DNA of 64,000 nucleotides from a virus, in IMG/VR virus record IMGVR_UViG_3300028393_001967, one strand, 5' to 3'. Numbering within the stretch: position 1 is the stretch's first letter; every line of letters begins with the position of its first letter. Under the pieces are notes generated by a model. It saw only the letters and a program-made list of their open reading frames with translations, was not told where the DNA came from and ran no database searches. The translations under genes and the position numbers were made by a program. Shown here in pieces: positions 30,013 to 44,386 of the stretch.

Positions 30013-30756
30013 ATGAGAATACAGGAACTATTGGTTGAAACTGCCGAAGATGATCGAGCTATCTTGAGTCTTGCAGACGCCATTTACAATTATCTTCAGT
30101 CCTACGCTGATACAGAGTTGGACTATGATGAAACTGGCGTGATACACATAGGACGTATAGGTGATCTTTTTGATACTCCTATTGAGATACTGAATAGTGT
30201 GAGACTGGAAATAACACCAGATGAAGCTATAGTGGATTTGGCACGTAGACTATACGGTCGTGCTACTCCAGCAGATAGTCATTTTGGACAATGGGACCCT
30301 ATGAACAAGGCCATAAGCCTAAATGCTGATTATTTGAGTTCTAAACGTATGCGTAATGTTATTGCACACGAACTAAGACACGCTATGGATGATGCTAAAA
30401 GTCTAAATAGGGCTAATCAAAGTACACGTTATCGTACAGCAAGAAGTGTTCAGCATCAAGCAGATCAAGATGGCGCTTATCAAGCACAGCCTGCGGAGAT
30501 CAACGCTAGATTCGTTGAAGCATTAAATTTACTAGTGCCCGTGATTGCCAAACTGAGCACATTGGATTCTACTAGTTTTAGAACTAAGATGACTGCATAT
30601 CTAAACCGTGCATTTGAACTTAAAGACATTGCAGATTATTATCCAGAAAAAACAGCAAATGCTCACTATAGAAGACTGCTTCAAAGAGCTTGGGACTTTA
30701 TCAACAAAGAACTGGCTCACGTGAAATCCCAGTCCTCTGATACTGCTGACACATAA
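30013..30756 (+). CDS. HExxH zincin-like protein, putative virion internal protein
   Basis: CTAAATA upstream; MRIQELLVE; VIAHELRH...PAEINAR. Confidence 0.65.
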   Translation: MRIQELLVETAEDDRAILSLADAIYNYLQSYADTELDYDETGVIHIGRIGDLFDTPIEILNSVRLEITPDEAIVDLARRLYGRATPADSHFGQWDPMNKAISLNADYLSSKRMRNVIAHELRHAMDDAKSLNRANQSTRYRTARSVQHQADQDGAYQAQPAEINARFVEALNLLVPVIAKLSTLDSTSFRTKMTAYLNRAFELKDIADYYPEKTANAHYRRLLQRAWDFINKELAHVKSQSSDTADT

Positions 30757-30761
30757 TTTTT

Positions 30762-30835
30762 AGGTCCTTAGTTTAATGGCAGAACACTGCTTTGACTTGG
30801 CGAAGATGAAAGTTCGATTCTTTCAGGACCTACCA
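30762..30835 (+). tRNA. tRNA-Val(GAC)
   Basis: Loop TTGACTT; weak anticodon stem; CCA. Confidence 0.8.
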
Positions 30836-30891
30836 AACTCTCCCTTACATACGGAGTACAATAGGACAAGTAGTATGTAAACTAATACAGG

Positions 30892-30920
30892 TTGACAACT
30901 GACCATGATAGTTGTATAAT
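30892..30920 (+). promoter_or_regulatory. Sigma70 promoter of the tRNA-Lys unit
   Basis: TTGACA-17-TATAAT. Confidence 0.85.
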
Positions 30921-30951
30921 AGATACTTAAACAAACAAAAGAGGTAACACA

Positions 30952-30981
30952 ATGAAACGTACTAAAGGTGCTAAAATGTAG
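30952..30981 (+). CDS. Lys-rich leader peptide MKRTKGAKM
   Basis: AAGAGG RBS; 3 AAA codons in 9; followed by a switchable hairpin and two tRNA-Lys genes. Confidence 0.6.
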   Translation: MKRTKGAKM

Positions 30982-31046
30982 TGTCAACCGTTGACCCCGT
31001 ATATGGTCTAAGGTTGGCACTTTAAAGACAATTTAATATGCACAAC

Positions 31047-31121
31047 CCACTCTAAACTTTGAAGGTGAAGTCCTGCCTCTTAAGCAGAGAGAACTGAGTT
31101 CGAGTCTCAGAGAGTGGACCA
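31047..31121 (+). tRNA. tRNA-Lys(CUU)
   Basis: Loop CTCTTAA; CCA. Confidence 0.85.
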
Positions 31122-31125
31122 TATA

Positions 31126-31200
31126 CGGGGTATAATTCAATGGCTAGAATAACCGGCTTTTACCCGGTCTATCAGGGTTCGAGTCCCTGTGCCCCGACCA
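31126..31200 (+). tRNA. tRNA-Lys(UUU)
   Basis: Loop CTTTTAC; CCA. Confidence 0.92.
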
Positions 31201-31276
31201 TATAAAAACACATTATACCAACTGACAATACCGTAACTGGGAAACTAAGGTTGTGTTTTAGTGTGTTTCTATATGG
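31198..31276 (+). repeat. Conserved-stem hairpin element D
   Basis: CCATATAAAAACACATTA...TAGTGTGTTTCTATATGG. Confidence 0.7.
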
Positions 31277-31326
31277 TCTTAACAGGAGTAATTACCCTGA
31301 TCCATAATCGGGAGTCATGACCCGAT

Positions 31327-31429
31327 GAACTCGTAGTGATGGAATGGTCAAACATAGGCCTCTTATAGGGCCGGTGGAGTTAAATGCCCACTTGCAGGTT
31401 TCGAAATCCTGCCTACAATGAGTTCGCCA
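31327..31429 (+). ncRNA. tRNA-like RNA with extended bulged acceptor stem and abnormal anticodon loop
   Basis: GAACTC-GTAG/CTAC-AAT-GAGTTC-GCCA; D-loop with GG; V-arm; 9-nt T-loop. Confidence 0.6.
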
Positions 31430-31522
31430 TATATAAACATACTAAAAATACCGTTATATCACAGTTGGTGCGTAGTGCCAACCAAGCGGACAGTTGAGTG
31501 ATAGTAGTATGTTTATATATGG
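31427..31522 (+). repeat. Conserved-stem hairpin element E
   Basis: CCATATATAAACATACTA...TAGTATGTTTATATATGG, a perfect 18-bp inverted repeat. Confidence 0.75.
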
Positions 31523-31596
31523 TGATGTAGCATAGCGGCCAATGCAGCTCCTTCATACGGAAAAGATCGTGAGTTCGAGTCTCACCATCACCACCA
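31521..31596 (+). tRNA. tRNA-Met/Ile2(CAU)
   Basis: Loop TTCATAC; mismatched anticodon stem; CCA. Confidence 0.85.
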
Positions 31597-31654
31597 AGTT
31601 TCATAATGGTTTGAACTCTAAATAGATAAGTACAGTTATAACTCCAAGGCTAAT

Positions 31655-32095
31655 ATGCTGCACCTAATTACTTCTGACACAGATAATTTTTTCAACTTCT
31701 TAAATGAAGATCCTGTTCGACCTTCTATTCCTACAATGAGTAGAATTGGTGCTAATCGAGATATCTTTGTATATCGTGACGAAGAAGGTAGTGTTAAGGC
31801 AATCACTTGTGTAAGTTATCAAGACTTTGTTCCAACAACGGAACAAGAATTGTTTACAGTAAATACTGAACCCAGTGTTGCAGTGTTTTACACCATTTGG
31901 AGTTATGCTCCTGGTGCTGGCCGTTCGTTGATTTTTAAAGCAGTTGAACACATTAAGGAAAACAAGCCATCAATAAAAAGGTTTGTTACATTGAGTCCAC
32001 CAACTGATATGGCACGTAAGTTTCATATTAAAAATGGTGCAAATGTTTTCCGTAGTAATGAAGAAACTGTTAACTACGAATACATTACTGTTTAA
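31655..32095 (+). CDS. GNAT-fold hypothetical protein (malonyl-CoA decarboxylase-like motifs)
   Basis: AVFYTIWS..GAGR.LI...RFVTLSP; TAAATA upstream. Confidence 0.5.
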   Translation: MLHLITSDTDNFFNFLNEDPVRPSIPTMSRIGANRDIFVYRDEEGSVKAITCVSYQDFVPTTEQELFTVNTEPSVAVFYTIWSYAPGAGRSLIFKAVEHIKENKPSIKRFVTLSPPTDMARKFHIKNGANVFRSNEETVNYEYITV

Positions 32096-33297: not shown

Positions 33298-33354
33298 AAA
33301 TTAATGATACAAAAAGACATTGACATTCATAGTTAAATACGTATAATAATATAT

Positions 33355-36319: not shown

Positions 36320-37860
36320 CAACTATTCAATTAAAGAAGAAACTTAATTTTGGTGGCCGTCGGGTGGGACTAATCATCCCGCCTAGTCCCTTTCTGCTTG
36401 ACGAACGTGTCTTTGTAAGTCTAGGAATTTTGCGAGTTGCTGCTAGCCTTGAACAACAAGGAGTTGATGTTGGTGTTGTAGATCTCAGTGGTGTAAGTAA
36501 CTATTTGGAAGCACTTGATAGTTACGTTGAAACAGCAGACATCGAGTGGATTGGTATTACCTGCACTACTCCACAATTGCCAGCAGCAGTAAGGGTAGCT
36601 ACCCGTATTAGAAAAATACGGCCTAATCTACGTATTGTGCTTGGAGGCCCGCACGTTACACTAACTTACAGCGCAGTTAAGGTAGAAGAAAAAGCCGGAG
36701 TAATTGATGGTCGTGCTCGTAAAGCAGCGAGATTACTTGAAAGTTATTTTGATGTATTGGTATCAGGAGATGGAGAACTAGCAGTATTCGAATGTTTCAA
36801 ATCTGATTGTCCTAAAATGGTAGACGGTGACGATATGCGTGGTGATTTCTTTATGTCTAATGAACAGTATGAAGAACTTCCCCGCCCTGCAAGACATTTG
36901 GTTGATTTGAATACGTATCATTACAGCATTGAAGGGTTCCCCGCAACAAGTTTGATTGCACAGTTGGGATGTCCATTTAACTGCGGTTTTTGTGGAGGAC
37001 GAAATAGTAGAAGCCTACGTATTATTCGCACCCGCAGTGAATGGAGCATTGTTGACGAAGTGCGTTGGTTATATGAAACATATGGTTATACTGGTTTTAT
37101 GTTTTATGATGATGAACTAAACGTCAATAAAAGTTTTGTCAAATTGATGAACGACATTTATGACTTGCAACAGGAATTAGGTGTCGAGTTTAGACTACGT
37201 GGATTTATTAAAGCAGAATTGTTTACTGAAGAACAAGCGGAAGCAATGTACAGAGCTGGTTTCCGATGGATACTGAGCGGATTTGAATCCGCTGACCCTC
37301 GTATGCTGATCAACATTGACAAGATGGCCACACTGGAAGACAATACTCGTGTTGTTGAAATTGCTCACAAGTATGGACTAAAAGTCAAAGCATTGATGAG
37401 TGTTGGTCATCCTGGTGAAAGCGAAGAAAGTATTATGTGTATTCGTGACTGGCTGATCAAAATGAAAATTGATGACTTTGATTGTACAGTGATCACTACA
37501 TATCCAGGCACCCCATACTATGACCTAGCAGTACCTGATCCAGTAGAAAAAGGTGTTTGGACATACACGCATCGTAAAACAGGCGACAAGTTACACTCTT
37601 ATGAATTAGATCATACTGTAACGGCCGATTACTACAAAGGCGACCCTAATGGTGGTTACACTGCCTATGTGTTTACTGACAATTTGAGTGCCAAAAAGAT
37701 TGTGGAACTTCGCGACCTAGTAGAAAAAGACGTTCGAGCAGCATTAAACATTCCTTTTAATCCAGGTGGTGTAGCAGTAAAGTTTGAGCATAGTATGGGA
37801 CAGGGATTACCAGATTCCATATATCGCGAGTCTTTGGCTCTTGACATAGCAACTAAATGA
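36316..37860 (+). CDS. B12-binding radical SAM protein
   Basis: N-terminal cobalamin-binding-like domain (LGGPHVT); CPFNCGFC; FYDDE. Confidence 0.9.
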   Translation: MTTIQLKKKLNFGGRRVGLIIPPSPFLLDERVFVSLGILRVAASLEQQGVDVGVVDLSGVSNYLEALDSYVETADIEWIGITCTTPQLPAAVRVATRIRKIRPNLRIVLGGPHVTLTYSAVKVEEKAGVIDGRARKAARLLESYFDVLVSGDGELAVFECFKSDCPKMVDGDDMRGDFFMSNEQYEELPRPARHLVDLNTYHYSIEGFPATSLIAQLGCPFNCGFCGGRNSRSLRIIRTRSEWSIVDEVRWLYETYGYTGFMFYDDELNVNKSFVKLMNDIYDLQQELGVEFRLRGFIKAELFTEEQAEAMYRAGFRWILSGFESADPRMLINIDKMATLEDNTRVVEIAHKYGLKVKALMSVGHPGESEESIMCIRDWLIKMKIDDFDCTVITTYPGTPYYDLAVPDPVEKGVWTYTHRKTGDKLHSYELDHTVTADYYKGDPNGGYTAYVFTDNLSAKKIVELRDLVEKDVRAALNIPFNPGGVAVKFEHSMGQGLPDSIYRESLALDIATK

Positions 37861-37920
37861 TGCTATAATTAATACATAGCAGCAAATGATGGAGTTGGCT
37901 GCTAACAAGTTCTTTAAAAA
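37841..37920 (+). promoter_or_regulatory. Sigma70 promoter plus boxB-like hairpin and rrn-type boxA
   Basis: TTGACA-17-TATAAT; TAGCAGC...GCTGCTA; GTTCTTTAAAAA at 37909. Confidence 0.7.
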
Positions 37921-38234: not shown

Positions 38235-38311
38235 GTCCCGTTCATCTAGTGGCCAAGGATAGTATCCTTTTCGGGATATTCACAGAGGTTCGACTCCTCT
38301 ACGGGACGCCA
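38235..38311 (+). tRNA. tRNA-Glu-like gene with an 8-nt anticodon loop
   Basis: Glu-type body; arm GTATC-CTTTTCGG-GATAT; GCCA end. Confidence 0.7.
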
Positions 38312-38324
38312 TATAGTTTTTATT

Positions 38325-38416
38325 GCCAGCGAGACTTGGAAGTCAGAGAGGTCTTATAAGCCTTTTAGCGCCAGATTAGCGTTCTTGAGTGGGTCCGATT
38401 CCCACCGCTGGTACCA
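38325..38416 (+). tRNA. Atypical tRNA with UAU anticodon (Ile-like), long V-arm
   Basis: 1-nt acceptor/D linker; 4-nt D-loop; 6-bp anticodon stem; loop CTTATAA; CCA. Confidence 0.7.
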
Positions 38417-39930: not shown

Positions 39931-40443
39931 ATGATGAAAGAAAAGTTTAAGCAAGCATTCATGGATACAGCCCGGCGGTTCGCAGAACTTAGCCACGCTC
40001 GTAGACTAAAAGTTGGTGCTATTGTAGTCAAAGATGATCGCATCATTAGCATTGGTTACAATGGTATGCCCGCAGGTTGGGATAACAACTGTGAAGACCA
40101 AGTATGGGATAGTGGTGCAGGTGGCTGGTTAGATCCAGAAGAGTTTGATGCCAAGTATCCATATGAAGGTTGGCACGAAGGTGCTCAACGTGATGTACGT
40201 TACGGATTAAAAACTAAACCAGAGGTATTACATGCTGAATCAAACGCGATTGCGAAATTGGCTAAGTGTGGTGAGTCCGGATTGGGGGCAACCTTATTCG
40301 TTACTCACAGTCCTTGTATTCAGTGTGCTAAACTTATTTTACAGTCTGGCATTAGTAACGTTTATTATAATGAAAATTATAGAGATGATTCAGGCTTGAC
40401 ATTCCTTGAGAAGTCAGGTATAATAGTAGAACAAGTTAAGTAA
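39931..40443 (+). CDS. dCMP deaminase
   Basis: KVGA, GYNG, HAESNAI and SPCIQC. Confidence 0.92.
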   Translation: MMKEKFKQAFMDTARRFAELSHARRLKVGAIVVKDDRIISIGYNGMPAGWDNNCEDQVWDSGAGGWLDPEEFDAKYPYEGWHEGAQRDVRYGLKTKPEVLHAESNAIAKLAKCGESGLGATLFVTHSPCIQCAKLILQSGISNVYYNENYRDDSGLTFLEKSGIIVEQVK

Positions 40444-43756: not shown

Positions 43757-43785
43757 TTGACATAGATATTAAATAAATATATACT
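43757..43785 (+). promoter_or_regulatory. Sigma70 promoter of the tmRNA (with embedded TAAATA)
   Basis: TTGACA-17-TATACT. Confidence 0.8.
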
Positions 43786-43791
43786 GTAAGT

Positions 43792-44262
43792 TAAGACTGT
43801 ATGAAGTCGATTGAAAAGGATTCTGGACGCGGGTTCGACTCCCGCCAGGTCCACCATAAGGAAGTTTGATGATTTTACAAGATTTAGAATATATTTTCAA
43901 GCCGCAAGTTGACGAAGGTACAACCAAGTTGTACTTTATGTTGATAGATGGTGAGCATACGATGATGGAACGACACAATGCTAGTGATATTGAATCATTA
44001 GTTCCAATGTTAGATTCATTTCAATATGCTGGTACAGAAATTCGTATTCCTCGTTTTATAAAGTAAGTTTTCTTATGATGGGCCTGCCATGGTTTCGACA
44101 GGGTCAAGAGTAATGAAATGGACAGTCCGGCAATGTAGAAGCCGTTAGGGTTGGGGTTTCCCGGCCGAAGACACAAAACCTATAAATGCAAACGATTCAG
44201 TTTACGCATTGGCCGCCTAAACGCAGCCTGGGGTAAGACATACCTCGCAACAGAAACTCAAA
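43792..44262 (+). ncRNA. ssrA: Circularly permuted (two-piece) tmRNA, tag (A)ANDSVYALAA
   Basis: Acceptor piece ends ...GGTTCGACTCCCGCCAGGTCCACCA (43856); coding piece starts GGGCCTG (44080; G3:U70); tag at 44188-44220. Confidence 0.92.
43869..44066 (+). CDS. Small acidic protein encoded inside the tmRNA intervening segment
   Basis: AAGGAAG RBS; 65-codon ORF filling the spacer. Confidence 0.6.
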   Translation: MILQDLEYIFKPQVDEGTTKLYFMLIDGEHTMMERHNASDIESLVPMLDSFQYAGTEIRIPRFIK

Positions 44263-44263
44263 G

Positions 44264-44287
44264 TAGGCTCTCCGGAGCCTATTTTTA
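44264..44287 (+). terminator. Intrinsic terminator after ssrA
   Basis: TAGGCTC-TCCG-GAGCCTA-TTTTT. Confidence 0.85.
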
Positions 44288-44386
44288 TGACTATAGAAGT
44301 CATAGGAATTTTCAATTGAAAAATGCTATTTTTAGGTTGATTCCTATAGTAAATAAAAGTACAATATTATTTTACAAGGAGACTGT

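Follow-up and report, generated by a model that had tools for sequence, protein, structure and literature searches.

A lysine-codon mini-ORF and a masking hairpin as a candidate ribosome-operated switch upstream of paired tRNA-Lys genes in giant phages

Among the described systems closest to the locus discussed here are the leader-peptide transcription attenuators, namely trpL, hisL, pheL, thrL, leuL and pheM of pheST, in which a small ORF in the leader, served by a ribosome-binding site of its own, carries codons cognate to the controlled pathway, and the position of the ribosome selects between mutually exclusive helices, giving negative feedback by the supply of charged tRNA. In the translational attenuation of ermC and cat, a drug-stalled ribosome on a tiny leader ORF remodels the adjacent hairpin after transcription, opening it and exposing a downstream ribosome-binding site. 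Other precedents come from the precursors of stable RNAs: rRNA precursors form processing stems from leader and trailer that are cut by RNase III, and leader/trailer pairing inhibits RNase P on pre-tRNAs. The bar minigenes of phage lambda cause peptidyl-tRNA drop-off at one fixed last codon and lack an adjacent tRNA gene or antisense element. Phage tRNA genes themselves have been viewed as constitutive codon-usage helpers, and lately also as decoys or replacements against tRNA-cutting defences. The tRNA-Lys of phage T5 counters PARIS AriB (PMC11464382), and phage tRNAs that evade anticodon nucleases are the subject of a further account (PMC10264068).

The locus considered here lies in a 64,000-nt stretch of DNA (the window; G+C 40%) from a large (giant) uncultured phage, in which ARAGORN called 45 tRNA genes and a permuted tmRNA. 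Within this array a mini-ORF, a masking hairpin and the genes for tRNA-Lys(CUU) and tRNA-Lys(UUU) appear to constitute one RNA device (Table 1). We hold it to be somewhat probable, on the strength of comparative and modelling evidence, that completed translation of the mini-ORF opens the hairpin and locks both tRNAs in an alternative fold, and that a stall at an AAA codon lets them mature. The element is self-contained, measures about 270 nt and belongs to a kind that recurs in hundreds of contigs from environmental phages; in the literature searched, no account of tRNA genes gated by a leader ORF was found.

Table 1. Positions in the window of the parts of the putative tRNA-Lys leader device
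Feature	Position	Strand	Remarks
Sigma-70 consensus promoter	30892-30920	+	TTGACA 30892-30897, 17-nt spacer, TATAAT 30915-30920
Shine-Dalgarno site AAGAGG	30939-30944	+	7 nt 5' of ATG
Mini-ORF MKRTKGAKM and stop	30952-30981	+	AAA at codons 2, 5 and 8; TAG 30979-30981
Putative sensor codon AAA	30973-30975	+	two codons 5' of stop; singled out by conservation
Hairpin 1 (masking hairpin)	30981-31020	+	left arm L 30981-30989, apex A, right arm R
A, antisense element in hairpin apex	30994-31008	+	targets the tRNA-tRNA junction
R, right arm GGTTGGCAC	31012-31020	+	pairs with L or T
AT-rich connector (weak hairpin 2)	31021-31038	+	duplicated in some relatives
T, last leader bases and base 1 of tRNA-Lys(CUU)	31039-31047	+	TGCACAACC; alternative partner of R
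tRNA-Lys(CUU)	31047-31121	+	ARAGORN; C1-G72, C2-G71
J, target of A	31117-31131	+	GACCA of first tRNA, TATA spacer, CGGGGT of second tRNA
tRNA-Lys(UUU)	31126-31200	+	ARAGORN; 31126-31197 scores 63.8 bits against RF00005

The features listed above for the trpL type recur at this locus, with the ribosome position again being the proposed selector between helices and negative feedback the proposed outcome. However, an intrinsic terminator is not among the alternatives (CUUUAAAG comes after the hairpin here, and AUUAAAG or GUAAAAG in relatives), control would fall on the tRNA genes themselves rather than on biosynthetic or synthetase genes, one fixed codon rather than a run of codons would serve as the sensor, and the output would be antisense capture of tRNA ends, acting on folding or RNase P access. 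A stall would also preserve the first hairpin here, whereas the stalled ribosome in trpL occupies segment 1. The ermC and cat leaders share with this locus the post-transcriptional remodelling of a hairpin adjoining a tiny leader ORF; unlike in those systems, tRNA genes come directly after the hairpin in place of an ORF or Shine-Dalgarno site, and run-through rather than stalling would open it. As in leader-trailer pairing, a 5' leader can pair with a segment of its own transcript that lies 3' of a stable RNA, but in contrast to such stalks the paired stretches include bases of the mature tRNAs (GACCA of the first and positions 1-6 of the second in A:J, base 1 of the first in R:T), and the pairing is masked by a hairpin and would be coupled to the translation of an ORF. 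The lambda bar minigenes are likewise very short phage ORFs with a Shine-Dalgarno site that act through tRNA, although the last sense codon of the present mini-ORF is not fixed. Like the counter-defence tRNAs of phages, the phage tRNA-Lys could supply lysine decoding upon destruction of the host tRNA-Lys; unlike it, the tRNAs of PMC11464382 and PMC10264068 are reported as constitutive resistant tRNAs without a sensing leader. An Rfam search of positions 30700-31700 (E<=5) recovered only tRNA besides chance-level matches, and features of T-box riboswitches were not found in it.

Relatives were retrieved with a pattern built from the hairpin apex and right arm alone, so that the ORF was not selected for and the junction J lay outside the pattern; as most bases of R and part of A were held fixed by it, the invariance of R and A is partly ascertainment. 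It superseded an earlier, looser hairpin pattern, whose mostly chance matches were screened with nhmmer, and the matches listed for it comprise 193 distinct full-length elements. The first alignment, of five relatives, already showed the same mini-ORF, with peptides such as MKRSGKR, MKRSAKR and MKRAKR, each followed by the stop. Many relatives of the neighbouring proteins are encoded on IMG/VR contigs that reach about 350 kb. The cultured-phage collection yielded no close relatives of the window, only tRNA-sized matches, and an exact 31-mer of the mini-ORF had no match in the viral contigs.

An ORF of 6-9 codons with Shine-Dalgarno site, ATG and TAG is retained in 190 of these 193 elements, the other three comprising two with a shifted stop and one chance match. 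Among the 190 listed, it spans 6 codons in 99 elements, 7 in 66, 8 in 19 and 9 in 6, and thus varies by whole codons only. All 190 possess a purine-rich Shine-Dalgarno-like site, which is AAGGAG in 100, AAGGA in 33 and a weak GAAAG or AGAGA in 14 of the matches listed, and is placed 5-10 nt from the ATG (6-7 nt in 163). The stop is TAG in each of them, its G being base 1 of the hairpin. Codon 2 specifies Lys in 189 (AAA 170, AAG 19, with AGG in one) and codon 3 specifies Arg in 172 of the 190, with CGT, CGA, CGC and CGG all in use; the proposed model offers no explanation for AAG at codon 2 or for Arg at codon 3. The codon two positions 5' of the stop (-2) is AAA in 190 of 190 listed relatives and never AAG; the long ORFs of the window encode Lys by AAA in 68% and AAG in 32% of cases. 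The last sense codon takes 16 different values among the listed relatives. It begins with C in about 90% of them (CGN, CTN, CAG or CCN; 30976-30978 in the window), producing a near-invariant AAAC for which the model likewise gives no reason. With AAA making up 4.3% of codons here, the probability of at least three AAA in eight codons is 0.004; it is the retention of the ORF in relatives, rather than this figure from a single sequence, that excludes the chance origin which the first-pass annotation had allowed for in view of the commonness of AAA. That annotation had also proposed the conservation of a Lys-rich micro-ORF 5' of tRNA-Lys as a check, and this is what the matches listed display, with the ORF in 190 of 193 and tRNA-Lys(CUU) behind it in 186 of 190. 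The mini-ORF is treated below as one that is probably translated.

The promoter, the AAGAGG ribosome-binding site and the ORF with its three AAA codons had all been recognised before and stand where they were placed. The promoter matches the sigma-70 consensus at 12 of 12 positions, being one of four such matches within 27-45 kb, and the transcript probably starts near 30927. In 49 of 183 distinct upstream contexts of the listed relatives a promoter with at most two mismatches occurs 16-31 nt 5' of the ATG, and in the remaining contexts the module comes after another tRNA. The other three perfect matches, also on the + strand, fall within the tRNA array (33320-33347, 37841-37869 and 40396-40424), as do several 11/12 matches; given these perfect and near-perfect promoters inside it, the array seems to be divided into many transcription units. 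A further observation is that the -35 region GGTTGACA (30890-30897) is the exact complement of the hairpin left arm TGTCAACC (30982-30989). As it is located 5' of the likely transcript start, this complementarity probably has no role at the RNA level.

The hairpin begins at the G of the stop codon, as the earlier reading had it, and its 40 nt fold at -19.6 kcal/mol (z = -4.55; none of 200 shuffles equals it). Across relatives, 83.5% of cells are paired between L and R versus 21.6-51.3% when slid, and pair 54:82 covaries (UA 34, AU 24, CG 4). A divergent relative recovered by a profile search outside the pattern (L502) has GAGCC/GGCTC as its outer stem, which amounts to a compensatory change. 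This contig also holds a second, decayed copy of the leader (L502:8856-8922), with the mini-ORF and left half of the hairpin intact and the right arm and tRNA absent. The alternative pairing of the right arm, previously noted as touching tRNA-Lys(CUU), is borne out by covariation. R (31012-31019) can pair with T instead of L, 88% of cells being paired across relatives versus at most 58% when slid, and pair 82:118 occurs as three Watson-Crick types (AU 33, UA 31, GC 4), this covariation being confined to one column. The base involved, the third of R, may be T, A or G and covaries with its partners in both L and T; in R:T it pairs with the base immediately 5' of the tRNA. Thus, L:R and R:T are mutually exclusive and share an R base that covaries in both. 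Relatives with the left arm GTGTCGCTC leave this base unpaired in the hairpin, yet it matches T. All tRNAs behind the leader have CC as their first two bases, which R can capture at the expense of G71 and G72. With the ribosome placed at the stop, the predicted fold contains R:T in 175 of 178 relatives. The supposed boxA-like CACTTTAAAGA enclosed by this pairing did not survive comparison: relatives read CACATTAAAGA, CACGTAAAAGA or CACGTAAAATC at this point, and it is simply the end of the hairpin arm plus the AT-rich spacer. Hairpin 2 was also considered as a conserved structure and rejected; it folds independently in just 44 of 102 distinct versions, and is therefore treated as an AT-rich connector.

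The dominant antisense element, which is absent from the first-pass annotation, is formed by the apex A against the tRNA-tRNA junction J. In the window the two are complementary at 15 of 15 nt (100%), and in 175 relatives they form a duplex of 12-17 bp with energies of -17 to -32 kcal/mol. Over 122 distinct combinations 92.6% of cells pair, versus 27-50% when slid; non-cognate partners pair in 78% of cells and the shuffled maximum is 81%. The length of the hairpin loop and that of the intergenic spacer vary together among relatives. In one relative (L456) a C-to-A change in A is offset by a G-to-T change in J, and in two others (L509 and L435) a shorter hairpin bears the apex ACCCCAAGT, with a match in ACTTGGGG where a tRNA-Lys(UUU) standing alone begins. 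The presence of G-U pairs assigns the pairing to the + strand RNA. Both tRNA-Lys of the window end in GACCA followed by TATA, and part of the apex (31000-31008) is in addition complementary, at 9 of 9 positions, to the stretch that joins the 3' end of tRNA-Lys(UUU) to its trailer (31196-31204, GACCATATA).

The succession of tRNA-Lys(CUU) and tRNA-Lys(UUU) noted earlier holds. The former was missed in the first Rfam pass; searched alone, 31047-31118 scores 38 bits against RF00005 (gathering threshold 29). Its body combines A8 with U14 and is mismatched at 27-43. Behind the same leader, relatives carry no fewer than four different tRNA bodies, and the T loop of one type is non-canonical (GGATCGTTACC). 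Among the matches listed, the leader has tRNA-Lys(CUU) as the next tRNA in 186 of 190 relatives, and tRNA-Lys(UUU) comes 2-7 nt after it in 169 of the 190. The gene 5' of the leader may be any of 19 tRNA types, or none; this variability of the upstream neighbor indicates that the leader and both tRNAs travel as one unit. The association is with lysine in particular: in a scan of all tRNAs at the fetched loci, mini-ORFs with a Shine-Dalgarno site were found within 100 nt upstream of 116 of 386 tRNA-Lys genes, and the count for each other amino acid was 1-8, with no enrichment of cognate codons.

The placement of the conserved AAA relative to the downstream structure is equally constant. With this codon in the A site (GCT-AAA-ATG-TAG), base 1 of the hairpin lies at +12 from the first P-site base, and the structure begins at +12 in 190 of 190 hairpin leaders among the matches listed. 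The helicase boundary of the ribosome is near +11. While AAA occupies the A site the hairpin would thus be just intact, its opening starting with the step that follows; by the same boundary, a ribosome at the stop would open just 5 of the 9 outer hairpin pairs. Relatives without the hairpin carry leaders of other designs. One kind comprises mini-ORFs, for example MKRKSKTRKPMGV and MxSDKSDKMxGV (each followed by a stop), that are preceded by a Shine-Dalgarno site, enter tRNA-Lys(UUU) directly and terminate within it at bases 8-10. With the final Lys codon upstream of the tRNA set in the A site, base 1 of the tRNA falls at +12 in 23 of 26 distinct cases of these two unrelated peptide types, and at +13 in the remaining three. 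Further Lys-rich mini-ORFs that enter the 5' strand of tRNA-Lys(UUU), most of them ending at bases 8-10, include MKRSSKTRKPMGV, MKRKSKTRKSMGVW and MDSDKSEKISG... (loci L038:380-486, L059:5077-5184, L070:4018-4124, L006:1553-1658 and L356:1596-1699); in such cases the RNase P cut would strip the stop codon from the mini-ORF. In many relatives a very basic ORF of 38-43 aa (MKHKIIVKQRNPFVVLALKRKAGSHRKSNKALRR...) enters tRNA-Lys(UUU) (e.g. L024:7105-7299, L049:3704-3835 and L052:348-542). An ArfA-like interpretation of this ORF was dropped, as it has no Pfam match at E<=1.

How these designs are distributed was gauged from 107 upstream contexts of one type of tRNA-Lys(UUU), sampled by tRNA sequence alone. 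A putatively translated leader of some kind precedes it in at least 77 of them. In 45 contexts tRNA-Lys(CUU) lies upstream, 44 of these having the hairpin leader (TGGCAC motif) and the 45th being L502 with its diverged right arm; 19 contexts have an overlapping mini-ORF, with 4 more showing a weak Shine-Dalgarno site, at least 9 have a longer basic ORF entering the tRNA, and the rest are without a recognisable leader. Three unrelated designs place a Lys codon at a fixed distance 5' of a structure on which maturation of tRNA-Lys depends.

Folding was predicted with a nearest-neighbour energy model that leaves tRNA tertiary structure, pseudoknots and proteins outside its scope. When transcripts of increasing length are folded for the window, the hairpin gives the energy minimum at all lengths through 31121, the transcript end at which the acceptor stem of tRNA-Lys(CUU) is complete in the predicted hairpin-state fold; once J has been transcribed, the minimum switches to the locked fold, in which R:T and A:J are both formed. 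For the whole module the locked fold is the minimum-energy prediction in 157 of 161 relatives, being more stable than the forced-hairpin state by a median of 9.2 kcal/mol, and the acceptor stem of the second tRNA survives in only 4 of 161 predicted folds. A path search gave a barrier from the open to the locked state of 31.6 kcal/mol for the free RNA, and of 14.7 kcal/mol with a ribosome at the stop holding the ORF and the first five hairpin bases. These values suggest that the hairpin is a kinetic trap that is opened by the ribosome. The 8-nt hairpin loop could, for its part, allow J to nucleate pairing without a ribosome.

Taken together, these observations allow a mechanism to be proposed. 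The hairpin, consisting of L:R and a small apical stem, would form first during transcription and hide two antisense stretches, namely R, which complements the last leader bases and the first one or two bases of tRNA-Lys(CUU), and A, which complements the 3' end of the first tRNA, the spacer and about the first five bases of tRNA-Lys(UUU). As long as the hairpin stands, both tRNAs could fold and be excised by RNase P. A ribosome that reads through to the TAG would unwind the base of the hairpin and free R and A to capture the tRNA ends; the resulting locked fold is predicted to be the more stable one and to break the acceptor stem of the second tRNA and shorten that of the first, and maturation would therefore be blocked, the locked fold presumably being refractory to processing. 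A ribosome waiting at the -2 AAA, short of usable tRNA-Lys(UUU), would instead halt one step before the hairpin and the tRNAs would mature. Through negative feedback, lysine decoding would thereby limit how much phage tRNA-Lys is supplied. We infer this direction of control from the nearest-neighbour folds. A common logic could thus underlie the different designs, with fast lysine decoding turning tRNA-Lys output off and a stall turning it on: in the overlapping designs a ribosome that has passed the Lys codon could only unfold the tRNA, and in the hairpin design it would lock two tRNAs together. The benefit to the phage of having tRNA-Lys off by default is not obvious.

The polarity of control might also be the reverse, with A:J and R:T forming a productive processing stalk and translation of the mini-ORF promoting the release of tRNA-Lys. 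In keeping with this, the predicted minimum-energy state unites the sequences on either side of the first tRNA in a duplex of 14-21 bp, for which the rRNA stems cut by RNase III provide a precedent. However, A:J spans mature bases (ACCA in the first tRNA, positions 1-5 in the second), and 157 of 161 folds lack the acceptor stem of the second tRNA; a cut there would therefore destroy the tRNAs. Moreover, the mini-ORF of relatives without the stalk enters the acceptor strand, where a passing ribosome can only unfold the tRNA, and a reversed polarity is on the whole unlikely. We consider it similarly improbable that the leader acts as a general sensor or timer of translation, in which slowed initiation, elongation or RF1-dependent termination at UAG would keep the hairpin closed. 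On such an account the Lys codons would owe their presence to the stimulation of initiation by AAA next to AUG and of termination by a basic residue at -2, and the codon at +2 and the residue at -2 do affect expression. The 19 of 190 listed relatives with AAG at codon 2 would fit an effect of the amino acid or of A-richness, and the stop is always UAG, which is read by RF1 only. Nevertheless, this use of UAG is explained by its G being part of the first hairpin pair. The bias of mini-ORF leaders to tRNA-Lys (116 of 386, against 1-8 for each other amino acid), the exclusion of AAG from the -2 codon in all 190 listed relatives and the Lys codon shared at +12 by two unrelated peptide families before tRNA-Lys(UUU) all speak against a general sensor and in favor of one for lysine.

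Explanations by the peptide itself, or by a bar-like minigene that traps a tRNA as peptidyl-tRNA, are very improbable. The strong Shine-Dalgarno site and tiny phage ORF do recall the lambda bar minigenes, and many versions of the peptide are basic (MKRxxKR); yet the peptides are unlike between designs (MKRAKR, MKRTKGAKM and MxSDKSDKMxGV, over a range of 6-14 residues), the last sense codon, which determines the trapped tRNA in bar, has 16 values, and the antisense elements would be left unexplained. There is just as little to be expected of a transcription attenuator, in which the hairpin, or Rho acting on an untranslated leader, would stop the RNA before the tRNAs. A leader ORF combined with alternative helices is admittedly the classical layout of such systems, but a U tract is absent after the hairpin or spacer (CUUUAAAGAC here; AUUAAAG or GUAAAAG in relatives), a terminator scan found nothing at 30981-31046, and the antisense targets are situated inside and between the tRNAs, 3' of any such stop, although sequence alone says little about Rho. 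Given the lack of a terminator, the gated step would be folding or processing rather than transcription. The first-pass proposal of a lysine sensor gating the production or processing of tRNA-Lys is supported by the conserved Lys micro-ORF and by the covariation in R:T, with A:J to be added to it and the boxA to be dropped.

If the favored mechanism of a lysine-specific, ribosome-operated switch is correct, the decoding activity of a tRNA would feed back on its own maturation, and the principle of ribosome and leader peptide would extend beyond transcription and translation to the control of RNA folding or processing, both of which would be new. Likewise new would be a monitoring by giant phages of the decoding of lysine in particular, which is where PrrC and PARIS strike. 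A more tentative possibility, and one that we consider doubtful, is that the device is an inducible, RNA-only counter-defence, in which the AAA codon senses that an anticodon nuclease such as those of the PrrC, RloC or PARIS kind has cut the tRNA-Lys(UUU) of the host, and the ensuing stall releases the phage tRNA-Lys pair. The phage tRNA-Lys(CUU) would then bypass the attacked anticodon altogether, and replacement tRNAs would be provided on demand without a protein regulator. A link of the device to PrrC and PARIS is plausible in this regard (PMC11464382). Phage T5 was examined as a model case (L535:463-708; AY543070 32162-32407), as its 55-aa CDS T5.065 extends to base -1 of the PARIS-neutralising tRNA-Lys(UUU). 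It was rejected: T5.065 and T5.066 both lack the +12 Lys geometry and the hairpin, and as the Lys geometry is missing and T5.066 similarly abuts tRNA-Pro, ending 4 nt 5' of it, this is not the same device. Among the remaining RNA genes of the window are three odd ARAGORN calls, namely a tRNA with a two-base anticodon (38235-38311), a 92-nt tRNA-Ile(UAU) (38325-38416) and the permuted tmRNA (43764-44311), which encodes the tag ANDSVYALAA.
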